A DNA stretch of 19,777 bases. Origin: a virus (taxonomy: Duplodnaviria > Heunggongvirae > Uroviricota > Caudoviricetes). Below are positions 2,799 to 19,564 of this stretch, in pieces (the first letter of the stretch is position 1; each line of letters opens with the position of its first letter). The notes under the pieces were generated by a model that worked only from the letters and a program-made list of their open reading frames with translations, ran no database searches and was not told the DNA's origin. The position numbers and the translations under genes are program-made. The DNA lies in the IMG/VR virus record IMGVR_UViG_2850808358_000001. The stretch is one strand, 5' to 3'.

Positions 2799-2933
2799 TC
2801 AGCAGCTCGGATAAGAGCGGAAGTGCTGACGAACATGTTCGAGCTCACCGAAACGTATGCGGCAGTAACTGCGCACATAAACCGGCTTGTCGTGTTCGTA
2901 GATGAAGTCATCGCGATTAACATCGTGAGCCAT
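2799..2933 (-). CDS. small hypothetical protein (44 aa, His/Cys-containing)
   Basis: Not in the ORF track (below 60 aa); ATG 2933 with AGGAGA SD 6 nt upstream; translation MAHDVNRDDFIYEHDKPVYVRSYCRIRFGELEHVRQHFRSYPSC; followed by a terminator. Confidence 0.45.
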   Translation of the reverse strand: MAHDVNRDDFIYEHDKPVYVRSYCRIRFGELEHVRQHFRSYPSC

Positions 2934-3082
2934 AGCTTTTCTCCTGTTTTTGTATACAGCCTGTTTACCCGAACAGGTTGTAGTTTGTTGGGAGAACCGC
3001 TATCCTTGGCTTGCGGTTGCCAAGGGTGTAGCGGTAGGTAATCCTCCATACACTTCGGAAATACTGGATATATTTCCGACCC

Positions 3083-3117
3083 AAAAAGCCCCGTTCCCTC
3101 GGGGCTTTATTCTTTTG
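3083..3117. terminator. bidirectional rho-independent terminator
   Basis: GCCCCG-TTCCCT-CGGGGC hairpin (3088..3105) flanked by AAAAA upstream and TTTATTCTTTTG downstream; abuts the stop codon (3107) of the 177-aa gene. Confidence 0.6.
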
Positions 3118-3640
3118 TTCCGCCATCAATCATCGCAAAAGATTCCACAATCAGACTGATACGCTTGGCTTCATCTTTTGTCAGGTCGCGAGGCAGGTTG
3201 CCAATGGTGACGATAAGATCTCCGCGCAATGGAATCGGCAGTTCAAATGTTTTTACACCAACCTGTACGTCAGCTACCGCCTTCTTCTTAGGTGCCATCT
3301 TTTTACGCTCCTTTTTTTTATTTACATCACCAACTGACACATTAATCTCACCATTCTGGTAGGAGATAAATTTATCAATAGCACTTTGCATTCGGCTTTT
3401 GTATGCCTGCAAAGATGATTCAGAGGGTTTGCTTTCTGCTGAGTCTGCGTACGAACTTGCTAAGTTGGCAACGCTATAATCACGGATATCGGCATCGGTG
3501 AAATCCGACCCAAGAACAGTAAGAAGGCGCAGGGAAGAGTCACGGAGATTGCGGGCTGTAGCATCATTGACGATACCAAGCTCAGGAAGCATCTGTAAGA
3601 AGTCCTGAAATGCTTTGATGGTGTAGCTTTTGGTTTGCAT
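3107..3640 (-). CDS. hypothetical protein (177 aa) in the cI-linked accessory slot
   Basis: ORF MQTKSYTIKAFQDFLQMLPELGIV...; two segments separated by a Lys-rich linker (KKKERKKMAPKKKA); no family recognised. Confidence 0.6.
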   Translation of the reverse strand: MQTKSYTIKAFQDFLQMLPELGIVNDATARNLRDSSLRLLTVLGSDFTDADIRDYSVANLASSYADSAESKPSESSLQAYKSRMQSAIDKFISYQNGEINVSVGDVNKKKERKKMAPKKKAVADVQVGVKTFELPIPLRGDLIVTIGNLPRDLTKDEAKRISLIVESFAMIDGGTKE

Positions 3641-3667
3641 AAAAAAGCCTCATACAGTTGATGAGGC
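3641..3667 (-). terminator. hairpin plus U-tract immediately upstream of the 177-aa gene; the 3' arm contains its SD
   Basis: Minus strand GCCTCAT-CAACTGT-ATGAGGC followed by TTTTTT and then ATG (3640); the GAGG in the 3' arm is the only SD-like sequence for this gene. Confidence 0.4.
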
Positions 3668-3829
3668 AATACTAATTTGATCGTCAAAACAAATCAAGAC
3701 CCAAGAAACGATCGTTGATTCCTTTCTTTGTGACAATACAGTCAAATCAAGTTTTACAAGGATTACTTTTCTTCGATTACATTAAAGGCCGCACTTCTGC
3801 GACCATCCATCACCAAAATGTCTCTTCAC

Positions 3830-4171
3830 TCATCCGAAGAAGCAGCAATCCGGGTCAGCACGCACAAGCTCAAGCGCATCAGTCAGCGAAAGTTCAGTAC
3901 TGTACTGATGCCATTTCATATCCTTCCGCATCCAATAGATTTTCCATCTATCCAGAGAACGTATGTACTTGATTCTTGCTGATGGCAGGATGTTTGTTTC
4001 ACCTGGGTTGCCCTGCCACACGGGGCGCTGTTCGCCGATATCTATCGTTTGGTCATTGATGCTATAAACAATATCCAGTTCATTGCGGATATGTTCAGGC
4101 GGCCTTATGCTTTCAATGAATTGGTGAACTTCTTTTTTGACCGCTTGATATTCAAGGTCAGTGAACGCCAT
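3830..4171 (-). CDS. hypothetical protein (113 aa) immediately downstream of cI
   Basis: ORF MAFTDLEYQAVKKEVHQFIESIRPPEH...; starts 38 bp after the cI stop on the same strand, so probably co-transcribed with cI; followed by an imperfect hairpin (3788..3805). Confidence 0.6.
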   Translation of the reverse strand: MAFTDLEYQAVKKEVHQFIESIRPPEHIRNELDIVYSINDQTIDIGEQRPVWQGNPGETNILPSARIKYIRSLDRWKIYWMRKDMKWHQYSTELSLTDALELVRADPDCCFFG

Positions 4172-4208
4172 CTATCCTCCTCACCCAAACGTTTCTTCAG
4201 GCCACTGG

Positions 4209-4916
4209 TTACCAGCTATGCGATGACCAGAATACTCTGCCAATAATCCTTACGGTTTTATGAAATTCATCTCTATCCATTACTTCATCCGGGTACTCTT
4301 CGCGATTTATTGATCTGATTATCACCGATGTAGGAGTGGCGATTAATGTTTTTACTCGCAACAAATCAGACTGGCAAATAGCGTAGGTTTTACCATCTCT
4401 GATGGTGGTATCTTGTGTGTTAACACCAACAACATCGCCATCGTGAAGAGTTGGTTCCATGCTTTGACCTGTTACCCTTACCAGCTTGGCAGAACTTTCA
4501 GTTACCCCCATCTTTTTCAGATAGTACTTTCTGAAAACCAAAGAGAACTCTGATGATTCTTCTATCTCGCAGCTACCGCTTCCAGCCGAAAGCGAAACGT
4601 TAAGAAGAGGCAATGCGACAAACTCGTCATCGTTTTTTTTAATGTCTTCCCATACCACAGCTTTTAAAGATGACTCACGGATATTGGATGGTTCTTCATG
4701 TGTACCATCCCTCATTTCACCAATACCAGAACTAAGCCATTCAGGGCGTACTTTTAAAGCATTAGCTAACTCAACCATCTTGCGAGATCCGTTTGTTTTA
4801 CCGGATGACATCTTCTGTATGGCTGGCTGAGATATTCCAACCATGTCCGCAAGCTGTGATTGCGACACCCCTGCCGATCTCATGGCTGCATTTAGTCTTT
4901 CTGCGAATGTTTTCAT
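4209..4916 (-). CDS. cI: CI-like prophage repressor (HTH plus S24 LexA-like autopeptidase domain)
   Basis: HTH (QSQLADMVGISQPAIQKM), Ala-Gly cleavage site (LSAGSG), Ser nucleophile motif GQSMEPT and downstream Lys; ATG at 4916 with no SD (leaderless-type start); the ORF track begins earlier at a TTG inside the operator. Confidence 0.85.
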   Translation of the reverse strand: MKTFAERLNAAMRSAGVSQSQLADMVGISQPAIQKMSSGKTNGSRKMVELANALKVRPEWLSSGIGEMRDGTHEEPSNIRESSLKAVVWEDIKKNDDEFVALPLLNVSLSAGSGSCEIEESSEFSLVFRKYYLKKMGVTESSAKLVRVTGQSMEPTLHDGDVVGVNTQDTTIRDGKTYAICQSDLLRVKTLIATPTSVIIRSINREEYPDEVMDRDEFHKTVRIIGRVFWSSHSW

Positions 4917-4927
4917 ATCCACAAATC

Positions 4928-5004
4928 TATAACTACGGTTATCCAAAGTAAAATAATAAAGGTTATTGCTATCTTTTATAACTTGGGTTATCCTTGGTTA
5001 TAAG
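4928..5004. promoter_or_regulatory. OR operator cluster with divergent pRM/pR promoters
   Basis: Palindromes ATAACTACGGTTAT (4929..4942) and ATAACTTGGGTTAT (4979..4991) plus related half-sites between divergent cI and cro. Confidence 0.6.
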
Positions 5005-6872: not shown

Positions 6873-8298
6873 TTTTTATGCGCCGCCCCATAGCATCGAG
6901 GCAGAGCAGGCGGTGATTGGTGGATTGCTTCTGGATGATGACAGCAGTGAGCGCGTCCAGAAGGTTCTTGCGATGCTGAAGCCTGACTCATTTTACAGCC
7001 GGCCACACAAAATCCTTTTCGAAGAAATAACCAGAATGCACCGGGAGCAAAAGCCAGTAGATGGCCTGACGCTTTTCGATGAACTGGAGCGTAAATCGTT
7101 AACGGCGTCTGTTGGCGGTTTTGCTTATATCGCTGAGATCGCAAAGAACACGCCAAGCGCCGCAAACATCGTTGCCTATGCAATGCAGGTTCGCGAAACC
7201 GCAATGGAACGCTACGCCATCAACCGCATGACTGAAGCGACGGAATTGCTCTATTCCCGCAACGGAATGACTGCAACGCAGAAGTACGAAGCTATTCAGG
7301 CGATTTTCACGCAACTGACAGACCATGCAAAAACCGGATCACGTCGCGGCCTTCGCTCATTTGGTGAGGTCATGGAAGACTGGGTTAGCGACCTTGAGAA
7401 GCGTTTTGACCCGTCAGGCGAACAACGAGGAATGAGCACAGGGATCCCATCGCTGGACAGGATGCTGTCACCGAAAGGTCTGGTGAAAGGCTCTCTGTTT
7501 GTCATTGGCGCTCGCCCTAAGATGGGGAAAACGACGCTATACAGCCAGATGGCAATCAACTGCGCAGTGCATGAGAAAAAGCCCGCTCTGATGTTCAGCC
7601 TTGAAATGCCAGGTGATCAGATACTGGAAAAACTGGTAGGGCAGAAGTCTGGTGTTAACCCGAATATTTTTTACCTTCCGGCGACAAATGACGCCGATGA
7701 CGGCTATCAGGGTGATTACGATGGTGACTTCAACAGGGCGATCGAAACAGCCAATCGCTTGAGTGAAATCGACCTGCTTTACATCGACGACACGCCGGGA
7801 TTATCTCTGGCTCAAATCGTCAGCGAAAGCCGTCGAATCAAGCGAGAAAAAGGATGTGTTGGCATGATTCTGGTCGATTACCTGACACTAATGACCGCTG
7901 AAAAGGCCGATCGCAACGACCTTGCCTACGGCATGATCACCAAAGGACTGAAGAACCTTGCCAAAGAGCTTGATTGCGTTGTTGTGCTTCTGACGCAGCT
8001 TAACCGCGCACTGGAAAGCCGAACCAATAAACGCCCATTACCAAGTGACTCACGAGATACAGGGCAGATTGAACAGGATTGCGATTATTGGGTGGGGATC
8101 CATCGTGAAGGTGCTTTTGATGACAGTGTTCCACCTGGTGAAACCGAACTAATCCTTCGTCTCAATCGTCATGGCAATACCGGCACGGTGTATTGCATTC
8201 AGGCAAATGGAGCTATTTATGACACAGACCAACAGTCTGCTGAAATGCGCCGCCGTGAACGCGAGGAACCGCAGTCCAAGAAGAAAGGAGGATTCTGA
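6862..8298 (+). CDS. replicative DNA helicase (DnaB-like, P22 gene 12 type)
   Basis: N-terminal DnaB-like domain (PHSIEAEQAVIGGLLLD), Walker A-like GARPKMGKT, Walker B-like ILVDYL; ATG 6862 with GAGGG SD. Confidence 0.85.
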   Translation: MTDNFYAPPHSIEAEQAVIGGLLLDDDSSERVQKVLAMLKPDSFYSRPHKILFEEITRMHREQKPVDGLTLFDELERKSLTASVGGFAYIAEIAKNTPSAANIVAYAMQVRETAMERYAINRMTEATELLYSRNGMTATQKYEAIQAIFTQLTDHAKTGSRRGLRSFGEVMEDWVSDLEKRFDPSGEQRGMSTGIPSLDRMLSPKGLVKGSLFVIGARPKMGKTTLYSQMAINCAVHEKKPALMFSLEMPGDQILEKLVGQKSGVNPNIFYLPATNDADDGYQGDYDGDFNRAIETANRLSEIDLLYIDDTPGLSLAQIVSESRRIKREKGCVGMILVDYLTLMTAEKADRNDLAYGMITKGLKNLAKELDCVVVLLTQLNRALESRTNKRPLPSDSRDTGQIEQDCDYWVGIHREGAFDDSVPPGETELILRLNRHGNTGTVYCIQANGAIYDTDQQSAEMRRREREEPQSKKKGGF

Positions 8299-10196: not shown

Positions 10197-10292
10197 ATGC
10201 ATTCAAGGCCTGTAGTTGACGACAACACATATCCGGGGCTATATTCCTCATACGCCAGCAAAATCTGGCGTCGGGATTGAGACCCCGGATGT

Positions 10293-10749
10293 TTACGGAG
10301 CGATATGAGACGCGCCCGCGTCTTTTTTCATATCGTTTGCACAGTCACATTCGCGATTTATGGTGGGCTGTGTGGGGGAGCCGAAACCGATAACCATTTC
10401 TTTGTTGAAGAGACAAAGCGAGCAGGCCAGTCCGATCGCGGTCCAACTGAGCCCCATTTCACGGGATTTTTCGGTAATACCATTCTCCCGATTGCTCCAG
10501 CGTTCCATAATCCAGTGGATCCACTCCTCCTGCTTAGGGAAGAGTAAAAACGGAATGGTCACCGGCAGGCCATAATCAATATTACGCGGGTCCGTTGTCA
10601 TGCCCCAGCCGATAATGAACTGAGCCGGGTTGGTACGGTAAAACTGTTTTAGTGCAGGCAATATTTCAGGATTCTGGCGAATGCGCTGTAGGCGTTCCAT
10701 CCGCCATTCAAAAACCATCTGGTAATCAGGATGTTTAAAATCGAAGGGT
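10293..10749 (-). pseudogene. large terminase subunit, N-terminal ATPase portion only; split by IS600 and 3'-truncated
   Basis: Frame ...[15 protein letters not shown]...[20 protein letters not shown]... resembles the N-terminal ATPase region of P22-like TerL; continuous in frame with the 6 codons at 12014..12030 across IS600 copy 2; stops after ~150 aa where a full TerL would be ~450-500 aa. Confidence 0.65.
10308..10328 (+). terminator. intrinsic terminator-like hairpin with T5 tract on the + strand
   Basis: AGACGCG..CGCGTCT stem followed by TTTTT; lies inside the 3' end of the truncated terL reading frame, suggesting foreign junction sequence. Confidence 0.45.
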
Positions 10750-10813: not shown

Positions 10814-11116
10814 ATGAGCAGAAAAACCCAACGTTACTCTAAAGAGTTCAAAGCCGAAGCTGTCAGAACGGTTCTTGAAAATCAACTTTCGATCAGTGAA
10901 GGCGCTTCCCGATTATCCCTTCCTGAAGGCACTTTAGGACAATGGGTTACCGCCGCCAGAAAAGGGCTCGGTACTCCTGGTTCCCGCACGGTGGCTGAAC
11001 TGGAATCTGAAATTCTGCAACTGCGTAAGGCGTTAAATGAAGCTCGCCTTGAGCGAGATATATTAAAAAAAGCAACAGCGTATTTTGCACAGGAGTCGCT
11101 GAAAAATACGCGTTAA
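10814..11116 (+). CDS. IS3-family transposase OrfA
   Basis: Identical protein to copy 1 OrfA. Confidence 0.9.
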
Positions 11117-11151
11117 TCGAACAATGGCGACAACAATTTCCCATTGAAGCG

Positions 11152-11970
11152 ATGTGTCAGGTATTTGGTGTATCCAGGAGCGGTTATTACAACTGGGTAC
11201 AGCATGAACCCTCAGACAGAAAACAAAGTGATGAGCGGCTAAAACTGGAGATTAAGGTGGCACATATCCGCACTCGCGAAACATATGGAACCCGGCGGCT
11301 CCAGACGGAGCTGGCAGAGAATGGCATCATCGTTGGTCGTGACCGACTGGCACGTCTTCGTAAGGAGCTAAGGCTACGCTGTAAGCAGAAACGCAAGTTC
11401 AGAGCGACTACGAACCCGAACCACAATCTGCCAGTTGCGCCAAATCTGCTGAACCAGACGTTCGCTCCTACAGCACCAAATCAGGTCTGGGTGGCGGACC
11501 TGACGTATGTTGCCACACAGGAGGGATGGTTGTACCTCGCTGGCATCAAAGATGTTTATACGTGCGAAATTGTCGGCTACGCCATGGGAGAGCGCATGAC
11601 AAAAGAGCTGACAGGTAAAGCCCTGTTTATGGCGCTCAGGAGCCAGCGCCCACCTGCCGGGCTAATCCACCACTCTGATCGAGGTTCACAGTACTGCGCA
11701 TACGATTACCGGGTCATACAGGAGCAGTTTGGTCTGAAAACATCAATGTCGCGTAAAGGTAACTGTTACGACAACGCTCCGATGGAAAGCTTCTGGGGAA
11801 CGCTGAAAAATGAGAGCCTGAGCCACTATCGTTTTAATAACCGGGATGAAGCCATCTCAGTAATACGGGAATACATTGAGATTTTCTACAATCGTCAGCG
11901 TCGTCACTCTCGTCTGGGGAATATCTCCCCGGCAGCCTTCAGGGAAAAATATCATCAGATGGCTGCTTAA
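11152..11970 (+). CDS. IS3-family transposase OrfB (DDE domain)
   Basis: Identical to copy 1 OrfB except R14W (c to t at 11194). Confidence 0.9.
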   Translation: MCQVFGVSRSGYYNWVQHEPSDRKQSDERLKLEIKVAHIRTRETYGTRRLQTELAENGIIVGRDRLARLRKELRLRCKQKRKFRATTNPNHNLPVAPNLLNQTFAPTAPNQVWVADLTYVATQEGWLYLAGIKDVYTCEIVGYAMGERMTKELTGKALFMALRSQRPPAGLIHHSDRGSQYCAYDYRVIQEQFGLKTSMSRKGNCYDNAPMESFWGTLKNESLSHYRFNNRDEAISVIREYIEIFYNRQRRHSRLGNISPAAFREKYHQMAA

Positions 11971-14937: not shown

Positions 14938-15013
14938 TGGTGCTGGTTAACGGACTTGAACCGCTACCCATTCGCTTACAAGGCGACTGCTCTACCATTA
15001 GAGCTAAACCAGC
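14938..15013 (-). tRNA. phage-encoded tRNA, anticodon read as UGU (tRNA-Thr), CCA encoded
   Basis: Manual fold of the minus strand: acceptor GCUGGUU/AACCAGC, D-arm GCUC/GAGC with GG loop, anticodon loop CUUGUAA, T-arm with UUCAAGU loop, 3' ACCA; one non-WC pair at the top of the anticodon stem. Confidence 0.6.
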
Positions 15014-15018
15014 ATATT

Positions 15019-15093
15019 TGGCGGGACAGCGTGGACTCGAACCACGATAAGAAGGTTAACAGCCTTCCGTAATGACCTTTATACGACTGACCC
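15019..15093 (-). tRNA. phage-encoded tRNA, anticodon read as GUU (tRNA-Asn), CCA encoded; may be degenerate
   Basis: Manual fold: T-arm CGUGG-UUCGAGU-CCACG perfect, anticodon stem GAAGG/CCUUC perfect with loop CUGUUAA; acceptor and D stems each carry one mismatch. Confidence 0.5.
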
Positions 15094-18409: not shown

Positions 18410-18712
18410 ATGAGCAGAAAAACCCAACGTTACTCTAAAGAGTTCAAAGCCGAAGCTGTCAGAACGGTTCTTGAAAATCAACTTTCGATCAGTGAAGGCG
18501 CTTCCCGATTATCCCTTCCTGAAGGCACTTTAGGACAATGGGTTACCGCCGCCAGAAAAGGGCTCGGTACTCCTGGTTCCCGCACGGTGGCTGAACTGGA
18601 ATCTGAAATTCTGCAACTGCGTAAGGCGTTAAATGAAGCTCGCCTTGAGCGAGATATATTAAAAAAAGCAACAGCGTATTTTGCACAGGAGTCGCTGAAA
18701 AATACGCGTTAA
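18410..18712 (+). CDS. IS3-family transposase OrfA
   Basis: Identical protein to copies 1 and 2. Confidence 0.9.
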   Translation: MSRKTQRYSKEFKAEAVRTVLENQLSISEGASRLSLPEGTLGQWVTAARKGLGTPGSRTVAELESEILQLRKALNEARLERDILKKATAYFAQESLKNTR

Positions 18713-18747
18713 TCGAACAATGGCGACAACAATTTCCCATTGAAGCG

Positions 18748-19564
18748 ATGTGTCAGGTATTTGGTGTATCCAGGAGCGGTTATTACAACCGGGTACAGCA
18801 TGAACCCTCAGACAGAAAACAAAGTGATGAGCGGCTAAAACTGGAGATTAAGGTGGCACATATCCGCACTCGCGAAACATATGGAACCCGGCGGCTCCAG
18901 ACGGAGCTGGCAGAGAATGGCATCATCGTTGGTCGTGACCGACTGGCACGTCTTCGTAAGGAGCTAAGGCTACGCTGTAAGCAGAAACGCAAGTTCAGAG
19001 CGACTACGAACCCGAACCACAATCTGCCAGTTGCGCCAAATCTGCTGAACCAGACGTTCGCTCCTACAGCACCAAATCAGGTCTGGGTGGCGGACCTGAC
19101 GTATGTTGCCACACAGGAGGGATGGTTGTACCTCGCTGGCATCAAAGATGTTTATACGTGCGAAATTGTCGGCTACGCCATGGGAGAGCGCATGACAAAA
19201 GAGCTGACAGGTAAAGCTCTGTTTATGGCGCTCAGGAGCCAGCGCCCACCTGCCGGGCTAATCCACCACTCTGATCGAGGTTCACAGTACTGCGCATACG
19301 ATTACCGGGTCATACAGGAGCAGTTTGGTCTGAAAACATCAATGTCGCGTAAAGGTAACTGTTACGACAACGCTCCGATGGAAAGCTTCTGGGAACGCTG
19401 AAAAATGAGAGCCTGAGCCACTATCGTTTTAATAACCGGGATGAAGCCATCTCAGTAATACGGGAATACATTGAGATTTTCTACAATCGTCAGCGTCGTC
19501 ACTCTCGTCTGGGGAATATCTCCCCGGCAGCCTTCAGGGAAAAATATCATCAGATGGCTGCTTA
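18748..19564 (+). pseudogene. IS3-family transposase OrfB inactivated by frameshift
   Basis: G-run is GGG at 19391..19393 where copies 1 and 2 have GGGG; the ORF stops prematurely at 19401 (217 aa instead of 272). Confidence 0.8.

Follow-up and report, generated by a model that had tools for sequence, protein, structure and literature searches.

The stretch of DNA analysed here (hereafter the window, that is, all 19,777 nucleotides (nt) of the IMG/VR virus record IMGVR_UViG_2850808358_000001) is a lambdoid, Stx-phage-like prophage, and the region considered below is 99.7% identical to Escherichia phage SH2026Stx1. Our subject is an RNA hairpin at the very start of a gene encoding a 177-amino-acid (177-aa) protein of the family phrog_2602 (3107..3640, minus strand). 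Upstream of this gene, and co-oriented with it, are a cI-type repressor open reading frame (ORF) with HTH_3 and Peptidase_S24 domains (4209..4946, minus strand), which stands at the head of the upstream operon, and a 113-aa DUF3024 gene (3830..4171, minus strand), from which read-through transcription would enter the 177-aa gene and which matches the PADLOC candidate defence protein PDC-S43 with an E-value of 7e-42. The cI ORF is listed from a TTG codon, its real start probably lying further downstream inside the ORF.

In minus-strand order, the region before the 177-aa gene reads TTGATT, tgttttgacgatcaaat, TAGTAT, t, GCCTCAT, caactgt, ATGAGGC, TTTTTT and ATG CAA. The hairpin (3647..3667, minus strand) is formed by a 5' arm GCCUCAU (3667-3661), a loop CAACUGU (3660-3654) and a 3' arm AUGAGGC (3653-3647). 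Its stem is abutted by a T6 tract (U6 in the RNA; 3641..3646, minus strand), which in the lineage of the window would serve both as a terminator tail and as the spacer between the Shine-Dalgarno (SD) sequence and the AUG, and the start codon ATG (3640-3638) directly follows this tract. The SD itself, GAGG (3648..3651, minus strand), lies in the 3' arm, 7 nt 5' of the AUG, and is the sole SD-like motif before the gene. A sequence-only reading of this DNA had placed the element, from stem to start codon, at 3638-3667, exactly where we find it, and its remark that the only SD-like sequence falls within the 3' arm of the stem is confirmed by the GAGG at 3651-3648. Folding of the region, which had been proposed as a check on that reading, also bears the hairpin out: RNAfold gives an energy of -10.1 kcal/mol for 3638-3672 compared with -2.9 +/- 2.0 kcal/mol for 200 dinucleotide shuffles (z = -3.57; 3 of the 200 shuffles folded equally well), and in a 121-nt context the hairpin is kept in both the minimum-free-energy (MFE) structure and the centroid. 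A pairing of 3700-3682 with codons 8-14, found in the single-sequence MFE structure, was dropped, as it is not in the alignment consensus. The hairpin is also among the sites returned by a consensus terminator scan (7 pairs, 4 of them GC, a loop of 7 and the tail TTTTTTAT), for which about 2.8 terminator-like sites are expected by chance per 3 kb.

Conservation and covariation of the hairpin

Besides the window, 10 further distinct sequences carry an identical or compensated hairpin upstream of homologues of the 177-aa gene (homologous loci are designated below by L numbers), and these hairpin-bearing homologues are 52-88% identical and lie in unrelated genomic contexts. Among homologues down to 52% identity, the hairpin stands immediately before the ATG in all but the L054/L066 lineage (56-59% identity), where it is absent, and phage YP3 (L053), where only a degenerate remnant is found. 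Hardly any variation is seen in the CCUCA/UGAGG core, in which the SD faces its complement, and GAGG is invariant in 11 of 11 aligned hairpin-bearing sequences; the loop sequence is free (caactgt, cgactgt, tactct, aggttgttt, cta or gttga). Immediately outside the CCUC/GAGG core, the stem has a G-C, A-U or U-A pair, and one position further out a C-G or U-A pair; the inner stem pairs vary as well (A-U/C-G, G-U/A-U and G-U/G-C/A-U), and the stem extends to 11 base pairs (bp) in L024, L027 and L062. Where C has changed to U in the 5' arm, as in L027 and L062, pairing is maintained as G-U on the sense-strand RNA only; RNA of the opposite strand would have a C-A mismatch and the DNA a T-G mismatch at these positions.

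Since MAFFT misaligned the 3' arm between lineages, covariation was measured on an anchored table of pairs, controlled by sliding and shuffling. At the non-core stem positions, 41 of 60 cells were canonical, compared with 33-56% when the partner was slid, and 8 extra pair types were observed at these positions, compared with 1-6 under the same control; none of 2000 column shuffles equalled the observed covariation value. Likewise, RNAalifold kept the hairpin in the closest five sequences, with a consensus consisting of the simple hairpin only. A covariance model built from one lineage found the window, L064, L068, L053 and L024, missed L003 and L029, and also returned palindromic matches on the reverse strand. 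When viral contigs were scanned for the promoter described below followed by CCTCA, 71 matches were obtained, in which the hairpin occurred only in the 177-aa gene family, the rest being chance-like. One unrelated viral contig, L077, shows the same promoter pattern with a similar CCTCATC...GACGAGG hairpin and then an ATG (7859-7925, plus strand), an element that could be due to chance or could belong to a second gene family with the same 5' element.

These data bear on the simplest alternative, namely that the inverted repeat arose by chance and has no function. The stem has just 7 bp in the window, and at about 2.8 terminator-like sites per 3 kb a single such site might well be fortuitous; however, a fold z-score of -3.6 and compensatory changes across homologues that are 52-88% identical and lie in different contexts make this explanation extremely improbable.

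The predicted promoter abutting the stem

A predicted sigma-70 promoter (3669..3697, minus strand), composed of a -35 element TTGATT (3697-3692), a 17-nt spacer and a -10 element TAGTAT (3674-3669), abuts the hairpin. In the 11-sequence alignment, the invariant blocks are cTTGATT, TAnnAT, CCTCA, GAGG and ATG, the 17-nt promoter spacer being variable, and the distance from the end of the -10 element is 0-2 nt to the stem (one base in the window) and 27-33 nt to the ATG. In L064 and in L017, the scan called a single promoter within about 1.1 kb, namely the equivalent site, and 1 nt and 0 nt, respectively, separate the end of this promoter from the hairpin. In L054, L066 and L056 the promoter is kept at the same distance from the ATG despite the absence of the hairpin, and in L058/L059 the upstream gene is divergent, so that the 177-aa gene needs a promoter of its own. 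RNA polymerase usually starts 6-9 nt after the -10 element, and counting seven nucleotides on from the -10 hexamer leads, in each of the 11 sequences with the hairpin, to the A of CCTCA. This conserved promoter geometry, from which we infer the start site, should put the gene's own transcription start at A3662 (3662, minus strand), within the 5' arm of the hairpin. With the predicted +1 at this position, the gene's own mRNA should lack the full 5' arm and would therefore form no hairpin and leave the SD free.

The computed cost of opening the segment from the SD to the AUG (-14..+3) is consistent with such a difference between the two kinds of transcript, as it amounts in the window to 11.7 kcal/mol in read-through RNA vs 5.5 kcal/mol in RNA beginning at the predicted +1, and ranges over the 11 hairpin-bearing sequences from 7.7 to 15.5 kcal/mol vs 3.4 to 8.3 kcal/mol. 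When only the upstream sequence was shuffled, the native value exceeded 98-100 of 100 shuffles in the window, L068, L029, L017, L062 and L060. In two distant homologues, L060 with another promoter (TTGCAT-17-TAAACT) and L140 with a variant one (TTGATT-18-TAAACT), the SD/AUG region also pairs with bases located at the predicted +1 or 5' of it, which suggests that the principle of SD occlusion recurs with different upstream sequences.

A second explanation that has to be considered at this point is that the gene's own transcript starts upstream of 3667, in which case the hairpin would lie in its 5' untranslated region and could throttle translation or be the target of a small RNA (sRNA) or a protein. 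The SD-containing stem does covary, and SD-sequestering leader hairpins have been documented in the tnpA leader of IS200 (PMC4513863). However, no other conserved promoter lies upstream, and the sole conserved -35/-10 pair is followed by the stem after 0-2 nt, a distance from the -10 element at which RNA polymerase cannot start. We therefore regard a hairpin in the gene's own leader as unlikely.

The promoter region contains additional conserved sites. A GATC in the promoter spacer (3682-3679, positions -20..-17) is fixed in most lineages and lies outside the -10 element, and a palindrome AACGATCGTT with a central GATC (3707..3716, minus strand), located about 10 nt 5' of the -35 element within a cluster of TTGAT/ATCAA pentamers, is conserved in many homologous loci; GATC sites are found at fixed distances of -42 and -73 from the ATG across lineages. 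In addition, the 150 nt upstream of the ATG (3641-3790) contain five TTGAT/ATCAA pentamers vs 0.54 expected, and these pentamers are enriched in most homologous loci. Both the GATC and the TTGAT/ATCAA sites may be regulator-binding or Dam-sensitive sites. The inverted repeat of the hairpin could likewise act as DNA and not as RNA, as the operator of a dimeric repressor at the start site, for example in autoregulation by the 177-aa protein. This would fit the overlap of the repeat with the predicted +1, the integrase core-binding-like domain of the 177-aa protein and the upstream TTGAT/ATCAA repeats, which suggest protein binding. Such an operator is nevertheless very unlikely, since both the length of the arms (5-11 bp) and the distance between them vary by lineage, the C-to-T changes keep G-U pairs but mismatch the DNA half-sites, and the conserved core corresponds exactly to the SD and its complement.

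Possible read-through from the repressor operon

A U6 tract directly follows a stem of 5-7 bp in the window, L064, L068 and L029. Elsewhere among the homologues with the hairpin, the tails are TTTGTT, TTTT, TTCT, TATC or AACGTTCA, and L018, L027 and L024 have the hairpin but no U-tract. By its anatomy, the window element qualifies as a moderate intrinsic terminator, and the view taken in the sequence-only reading, that a terminator-like structure faces the transcripts coming from cI and the 113-aa gene, holds for the window as far as the order of stem and U6 can tell. Since the T-tract varies between lineages, it is the occlusion of the SD that is conserved in the element, and termination is a lineage-specific addition. 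A gathering-score search of the whole window against Rfam returned no family for the hairpin or for the spacer at 2934-3106, and an E-value search of 2900-4300 returned chance-level matches only, such as MicC at an E-value of 4.1. The features of an attenuator or riboswitch leader were thus not found here, there being neither an Rfam match nor conserved mutually exclusive structures in the alifold consensus.

It has been proposed, in the sequence-only reading, that the expression of the 177-aa gene depends on hairpin opening or antitermination. In this explanation the hairpin serves chiefly as the intrinsic terminator of the cI-DUF3024 operon, and the 177-aa gene requires antitermination, attenuation or conditional opening of the stem. 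The canonical terminator anatomy in the window, L064, L068 and L029 agrees with such a function. Moreover, the first hairpin after the DUF3024 gene (3787..3804, minus strand; GGTCGCAGAAGTGCGGCC followed by TTTAATG) is weakly terminator-like and has a tail of 3 U only, so that read-through to the start of the 177-aa gene is plausible. On the other hand, a conserved promoter abuts the stem and places the predicted +1 inside it, the U-tract is absent from the hairpins of L018, L027 and L024, and the element travels with the downstream gene, as 933W has the same DUF3024 block followed by different DNA after 3786. For the variant with attenuation, there is in addition no match to an attenuator or riboswitch in Rfam and no conserved alternative structure. 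With regard to antitermination, the PRM and PRE transcripts of the lambda paradigm are not known to carry a nut site or to be N-modified, and N antitermination would be unexpected at this hairpin; nutL of lambda lies downstream of pL, which by the annotation of 933W is beyond the segment discussed here. An operon terminator with conditional expression of the 177-aa gene is, in our judgement, rather unlikely, and the proposed dependence on hairpin opening or antitermination finds no support at a gene whose conserved promoter has its predicted +1 inside the 5' arm.

We favour instead, with a probability of roughly 55%, the explanation that the hairpin is an insulator carried by a mobile cassette, by which read-through from cI and DUF3024 is terminated or translationally silenced while expression is left to the cassette's own promoter. 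The cassette would consist of this promoter, the hairpin with the SD, the 177-aa gene, a 3' stem-loop, a structured spacer and a 44-aa ORF, with the hairpin as its 5' boundary. RNA of the cI/DUF3024 operon, arising by read-through from PRM or PRE, would have both arms, so that the hairpin would form and the GAGG would be buried. In this phage, the U6 tract would in addition cause RNA polymerase to terminate just before the AUG; both the efficiency of this termination and the translational silencing are steps that we infer. In lineages without the U-tract, the untranslated read-through RNA should be exposed to Rho-dependent polarity. RNA initiated at A3662 would, by comparison, begin with an unstructured leader of about 22 nt with a free SD and a U-rich spacer before the AUG, and would be translated. 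As a result, expression of the 177-aa protein would be uncoupled from transcription of the repressor operon and would be set by the cassette promoter only.

Several observations weigh against this insulator model. A terminator located downstream of a promoter gives that promoter no protection from occlusion by incoming polymerases, and the promoter of the window matches only 8 of 12 consensus positions, which is just below the threshold of the scan, and was not called. The sequences L018, L024, L056, L058 and L054 fail to beat the control with shuffled upstream sequence, the stems of L003 and L029 are weakened, and the lack of the hairpin in L054/L066 and L056 indicates that it is dispensable. 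Furthermore, the covariation derives from few independent lineages (about 4-5), and the cassette is rare, as it occurs in just 6 of 5426 complete E. coli genomes and is missing from the well-studied phages.

If the insulator model is true, prophage accessory cassettes share with insertion sequences a way of staying silent under outside transcription, and immunity-region genes that are assumed to be co-expressed with cI, as rexAB and stk are, could be deliberately uncoupled from it. This would affect the annotation of prophage operons, as RNA-seq reads from a lysogen that cover the gene would not imply the presence of the protein, and would help to foresee under which conditions candidate genes for defence or exclusion are expressed. 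A hairpin of 21 nt that unites a terminator and an anti-SD sequence over a +1 would also be a compact natural part that could serve in synthetic insulation.

The cassette, its neighbours and comparable systems

The cassette is mobile. The 177-aa gene is found directly after cI in L024, L060, L064-L069 and L140, after cI-DUF3024 in the window, after a DinI gene at the prophage end in L017, L018, L020 and L062, beside chromosomal or divergent genes in L056 and L058/L059, in a Yersinia phage in L053 and elsewhere in L003. Its G+C content and that of its neighbours (0.41-0.47) reveal no compositional island. Homologues of phrog_2602 are confined to Enterobacterales and are all annotated as hypothetical, and the 177-aa protein has no match in Pfam, NCBIfam or PADLOC. 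AlphaFold2, run with a 41-sequence alignment, confidently predicts an N-terminal four-helix domain of about 100 aa (residues 1-100, with a predicted local distance difference test score (pLDDT) of about 70-89) that resembles integrase core-binding domains, followed by a lysine-rich linker and by about 50 C-terminal residues that are poorly modelled though highly conserved. The integrase core-binding-like domain makes a DNA-binding protein more likely than a toxin; the suggestion of a toxic effector, made in the sequence-only reading, is thus not supported by this domain or by the searches of Pfam, NCBIfam and PADLOC.

After the stop codon of the 177-aa gene follows a stem-loop AAAGCCCCG-AGGGAA-CGGGGCUUU (3085..3108, minus strand) and then UU on the sense strand. 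The terminator scan calls this stem-loop on the plus (antisense) strand, where a T-run is present in all of the homologues examined; in most loci the T-run is mainly antisense, a sense T-run being found only in the lineages of the window and L017. Two antisense terminator-like hairpins with T-runs are located on the plus strand at 2955-2982 and 3085-3108, which hints at an antisense RNA from the plus strand of the spacer region. The spacer itself (2934-3106, minus strand, about 170 nt) is conserved and highly structured, with several hairpins, and leads to a 44-aa ORF of phrog_21154 (2799..2933, minus strand; MAHDVNRDDFIYEHDKPVYVRSYCRIRFGELEHVRQHFRSYPSC), which has no Pfam match. A TTCTCC in the spacer pairs with the SD of this ORF, GGAGAA, with compensatory changes in 3-5 sequences. 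In 12 of 17 loci, the 44-aa ORF follows about 165-200 nt after the 177-aa gene irrespective of the flanking context; it seems to be part of the same mobile cassette, and its protein is more conserved than the 177-aa protein. A three-part module composed of the 177-aa protein, a spacer that sequesters the next SD and the 44-aa protein, found repeatedly in the 'rex position' by cI in prophages of enterobacteria and insulated from transcription of the repressor operon, might represent a new prophage exclusion/defence or lysogeny-control system with elaborate expression control, a suggestion that we make tentatively and consider doubtful. The location of the module promoter amid TTGAT/ATCAA repeats and fixed GATC sites would fit autoregulation or a sensitivity to Dam or replication.

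Upstream of the cassette, similarity to 933W spans the DUF3024 gene and ends at 3786, after which 933W continues with L0083-stk-L0081-tM; the divergence after 3786 indicates that the 177-aa gene forms a separate module together with the 145 nt upstream of it. The weakly terminator-like hairpin at 3787..3804 marks the end of the block shared with 933W, in which the GGTCGCAGAAGTGCGGCC hairpin follows L0084 (DUF3024). In L060/L061 and L068/L069, near-identical GGTCGCAGAAGTGCGGCC hairpins occur directly after cI, and those of L060/L061 are clear terminators by virtue of a T6-T7 run; this hairpin is thus portable as well, and its tail in the window is just TTT. In L054 (1668-2009) and L055 (209-550), outside a cI context, a DUF3024 gene also precedes a homologue of the 177-aa gene with 59% identity, and the DUF3024 and 177-aa genes may be functionally linked. 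A literature search for DUF3024 found no paper that mentions it. In other parts of the window, three IS3-family copies interrupt the prophage on the plus strand (1-1157, 10814-11970 and 18410-19401) with a 100-aa orfA and a 272-aa orfB, the third being shorter and having a 217-aa ORF, and suggest that the prophage is rearranged or defective. The prophage is possibly of Shigella origin, a 99%-identical protein being named from Shigella boydii. Rfam also identifies the Hfq-binding sRNA isrK (70.6 bits), and two tRNA genes are present, elsewhere in the window (10252-10328, plus strand; 14941-15093, minus strand).

The arrangement at the start of the 177-aa gene resembles fold-back inhibition, which was reportedly described for IS10 (pIN) and IS50 (T1) in work by Davis, Simons and Kleckner in 1985, Krebs and Reznikoff in 1986 and Schulz and Reznikoff in 1991. 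As in these insertion sequences, a mobile unit has complementary segments around its own start, so that transcripts from outside hold both segments and have an occluded ribosome-binding site, while those initiated at the resident promoter have their 5' ends between or within the segments and can be translated, both the start and the effect on translation being predicted ones in the cassette. The 3' segment of the cassette likewise covers the ribosome-binding site, and GATC is present in the promoter region, although in the cassette it lies in the spacer (-20 to -17) and not in the -10 element. Unlike IS10 and IS50, the cassette is a prophage accessory unit and does not encode a transposase, its stem is compact (7-11 bp) with the SD as the 3' arm, and in the lineage of the window the U6 tract would add intrinsic termination.

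A similar combination is known from the left end of IS200, where a terminator acts against impinging transcription and a stem-loop in the tnpA leader sequesters the SD (PMC4513863). The cassette would share with IS200 a barrier to incoming transcription and SD sequestration at the start of a gene on a mobile element. However, IS200 uses two separate inverted repeats, with the SD stem-loop in its own mRNA, whereas in the cassette a single hairpin could serve both purposes, and the gene's own mRNA is predicted to lack it. In phages, morons such as gene 15 of HK97 are transcribed independently, each having a promoter and a terminator of its own (PMC3594210). In line with this description, the cassette has its own promoter and a 3' stem-loop, is found at varied prophage positions and is located in an immunity region that is expressed in the prophage. 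It differs from morons in a G+C content that is not distinct from that of its neighbours, a feature that is typical of morons but not strictly defining, and from their classical description in the anti-SD/terminator hairpin embedded in its promoter.

Finally, the position of the cassette invites comparison with the immunity regions of related phages. The lambda immunity region consists of cI-rexA-rexB with tIMM and an internal promoter, PLIT, for rexB, and that of 933W is annotated as cI-L0084-L0083-stk-L0081-tM. As in lambda and 933W, accessory genes directly follow cI in the same orientation, and, as in lambda, one of the genes further downstream is served by its own promoter besides read-through from PRM. 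In contrast to the accessory genes of lambda and 933W, which are thought to be co-transcribed with cI, the 177-aa gene is preceded by an element that appears to prevent its co-expression with the repressor.

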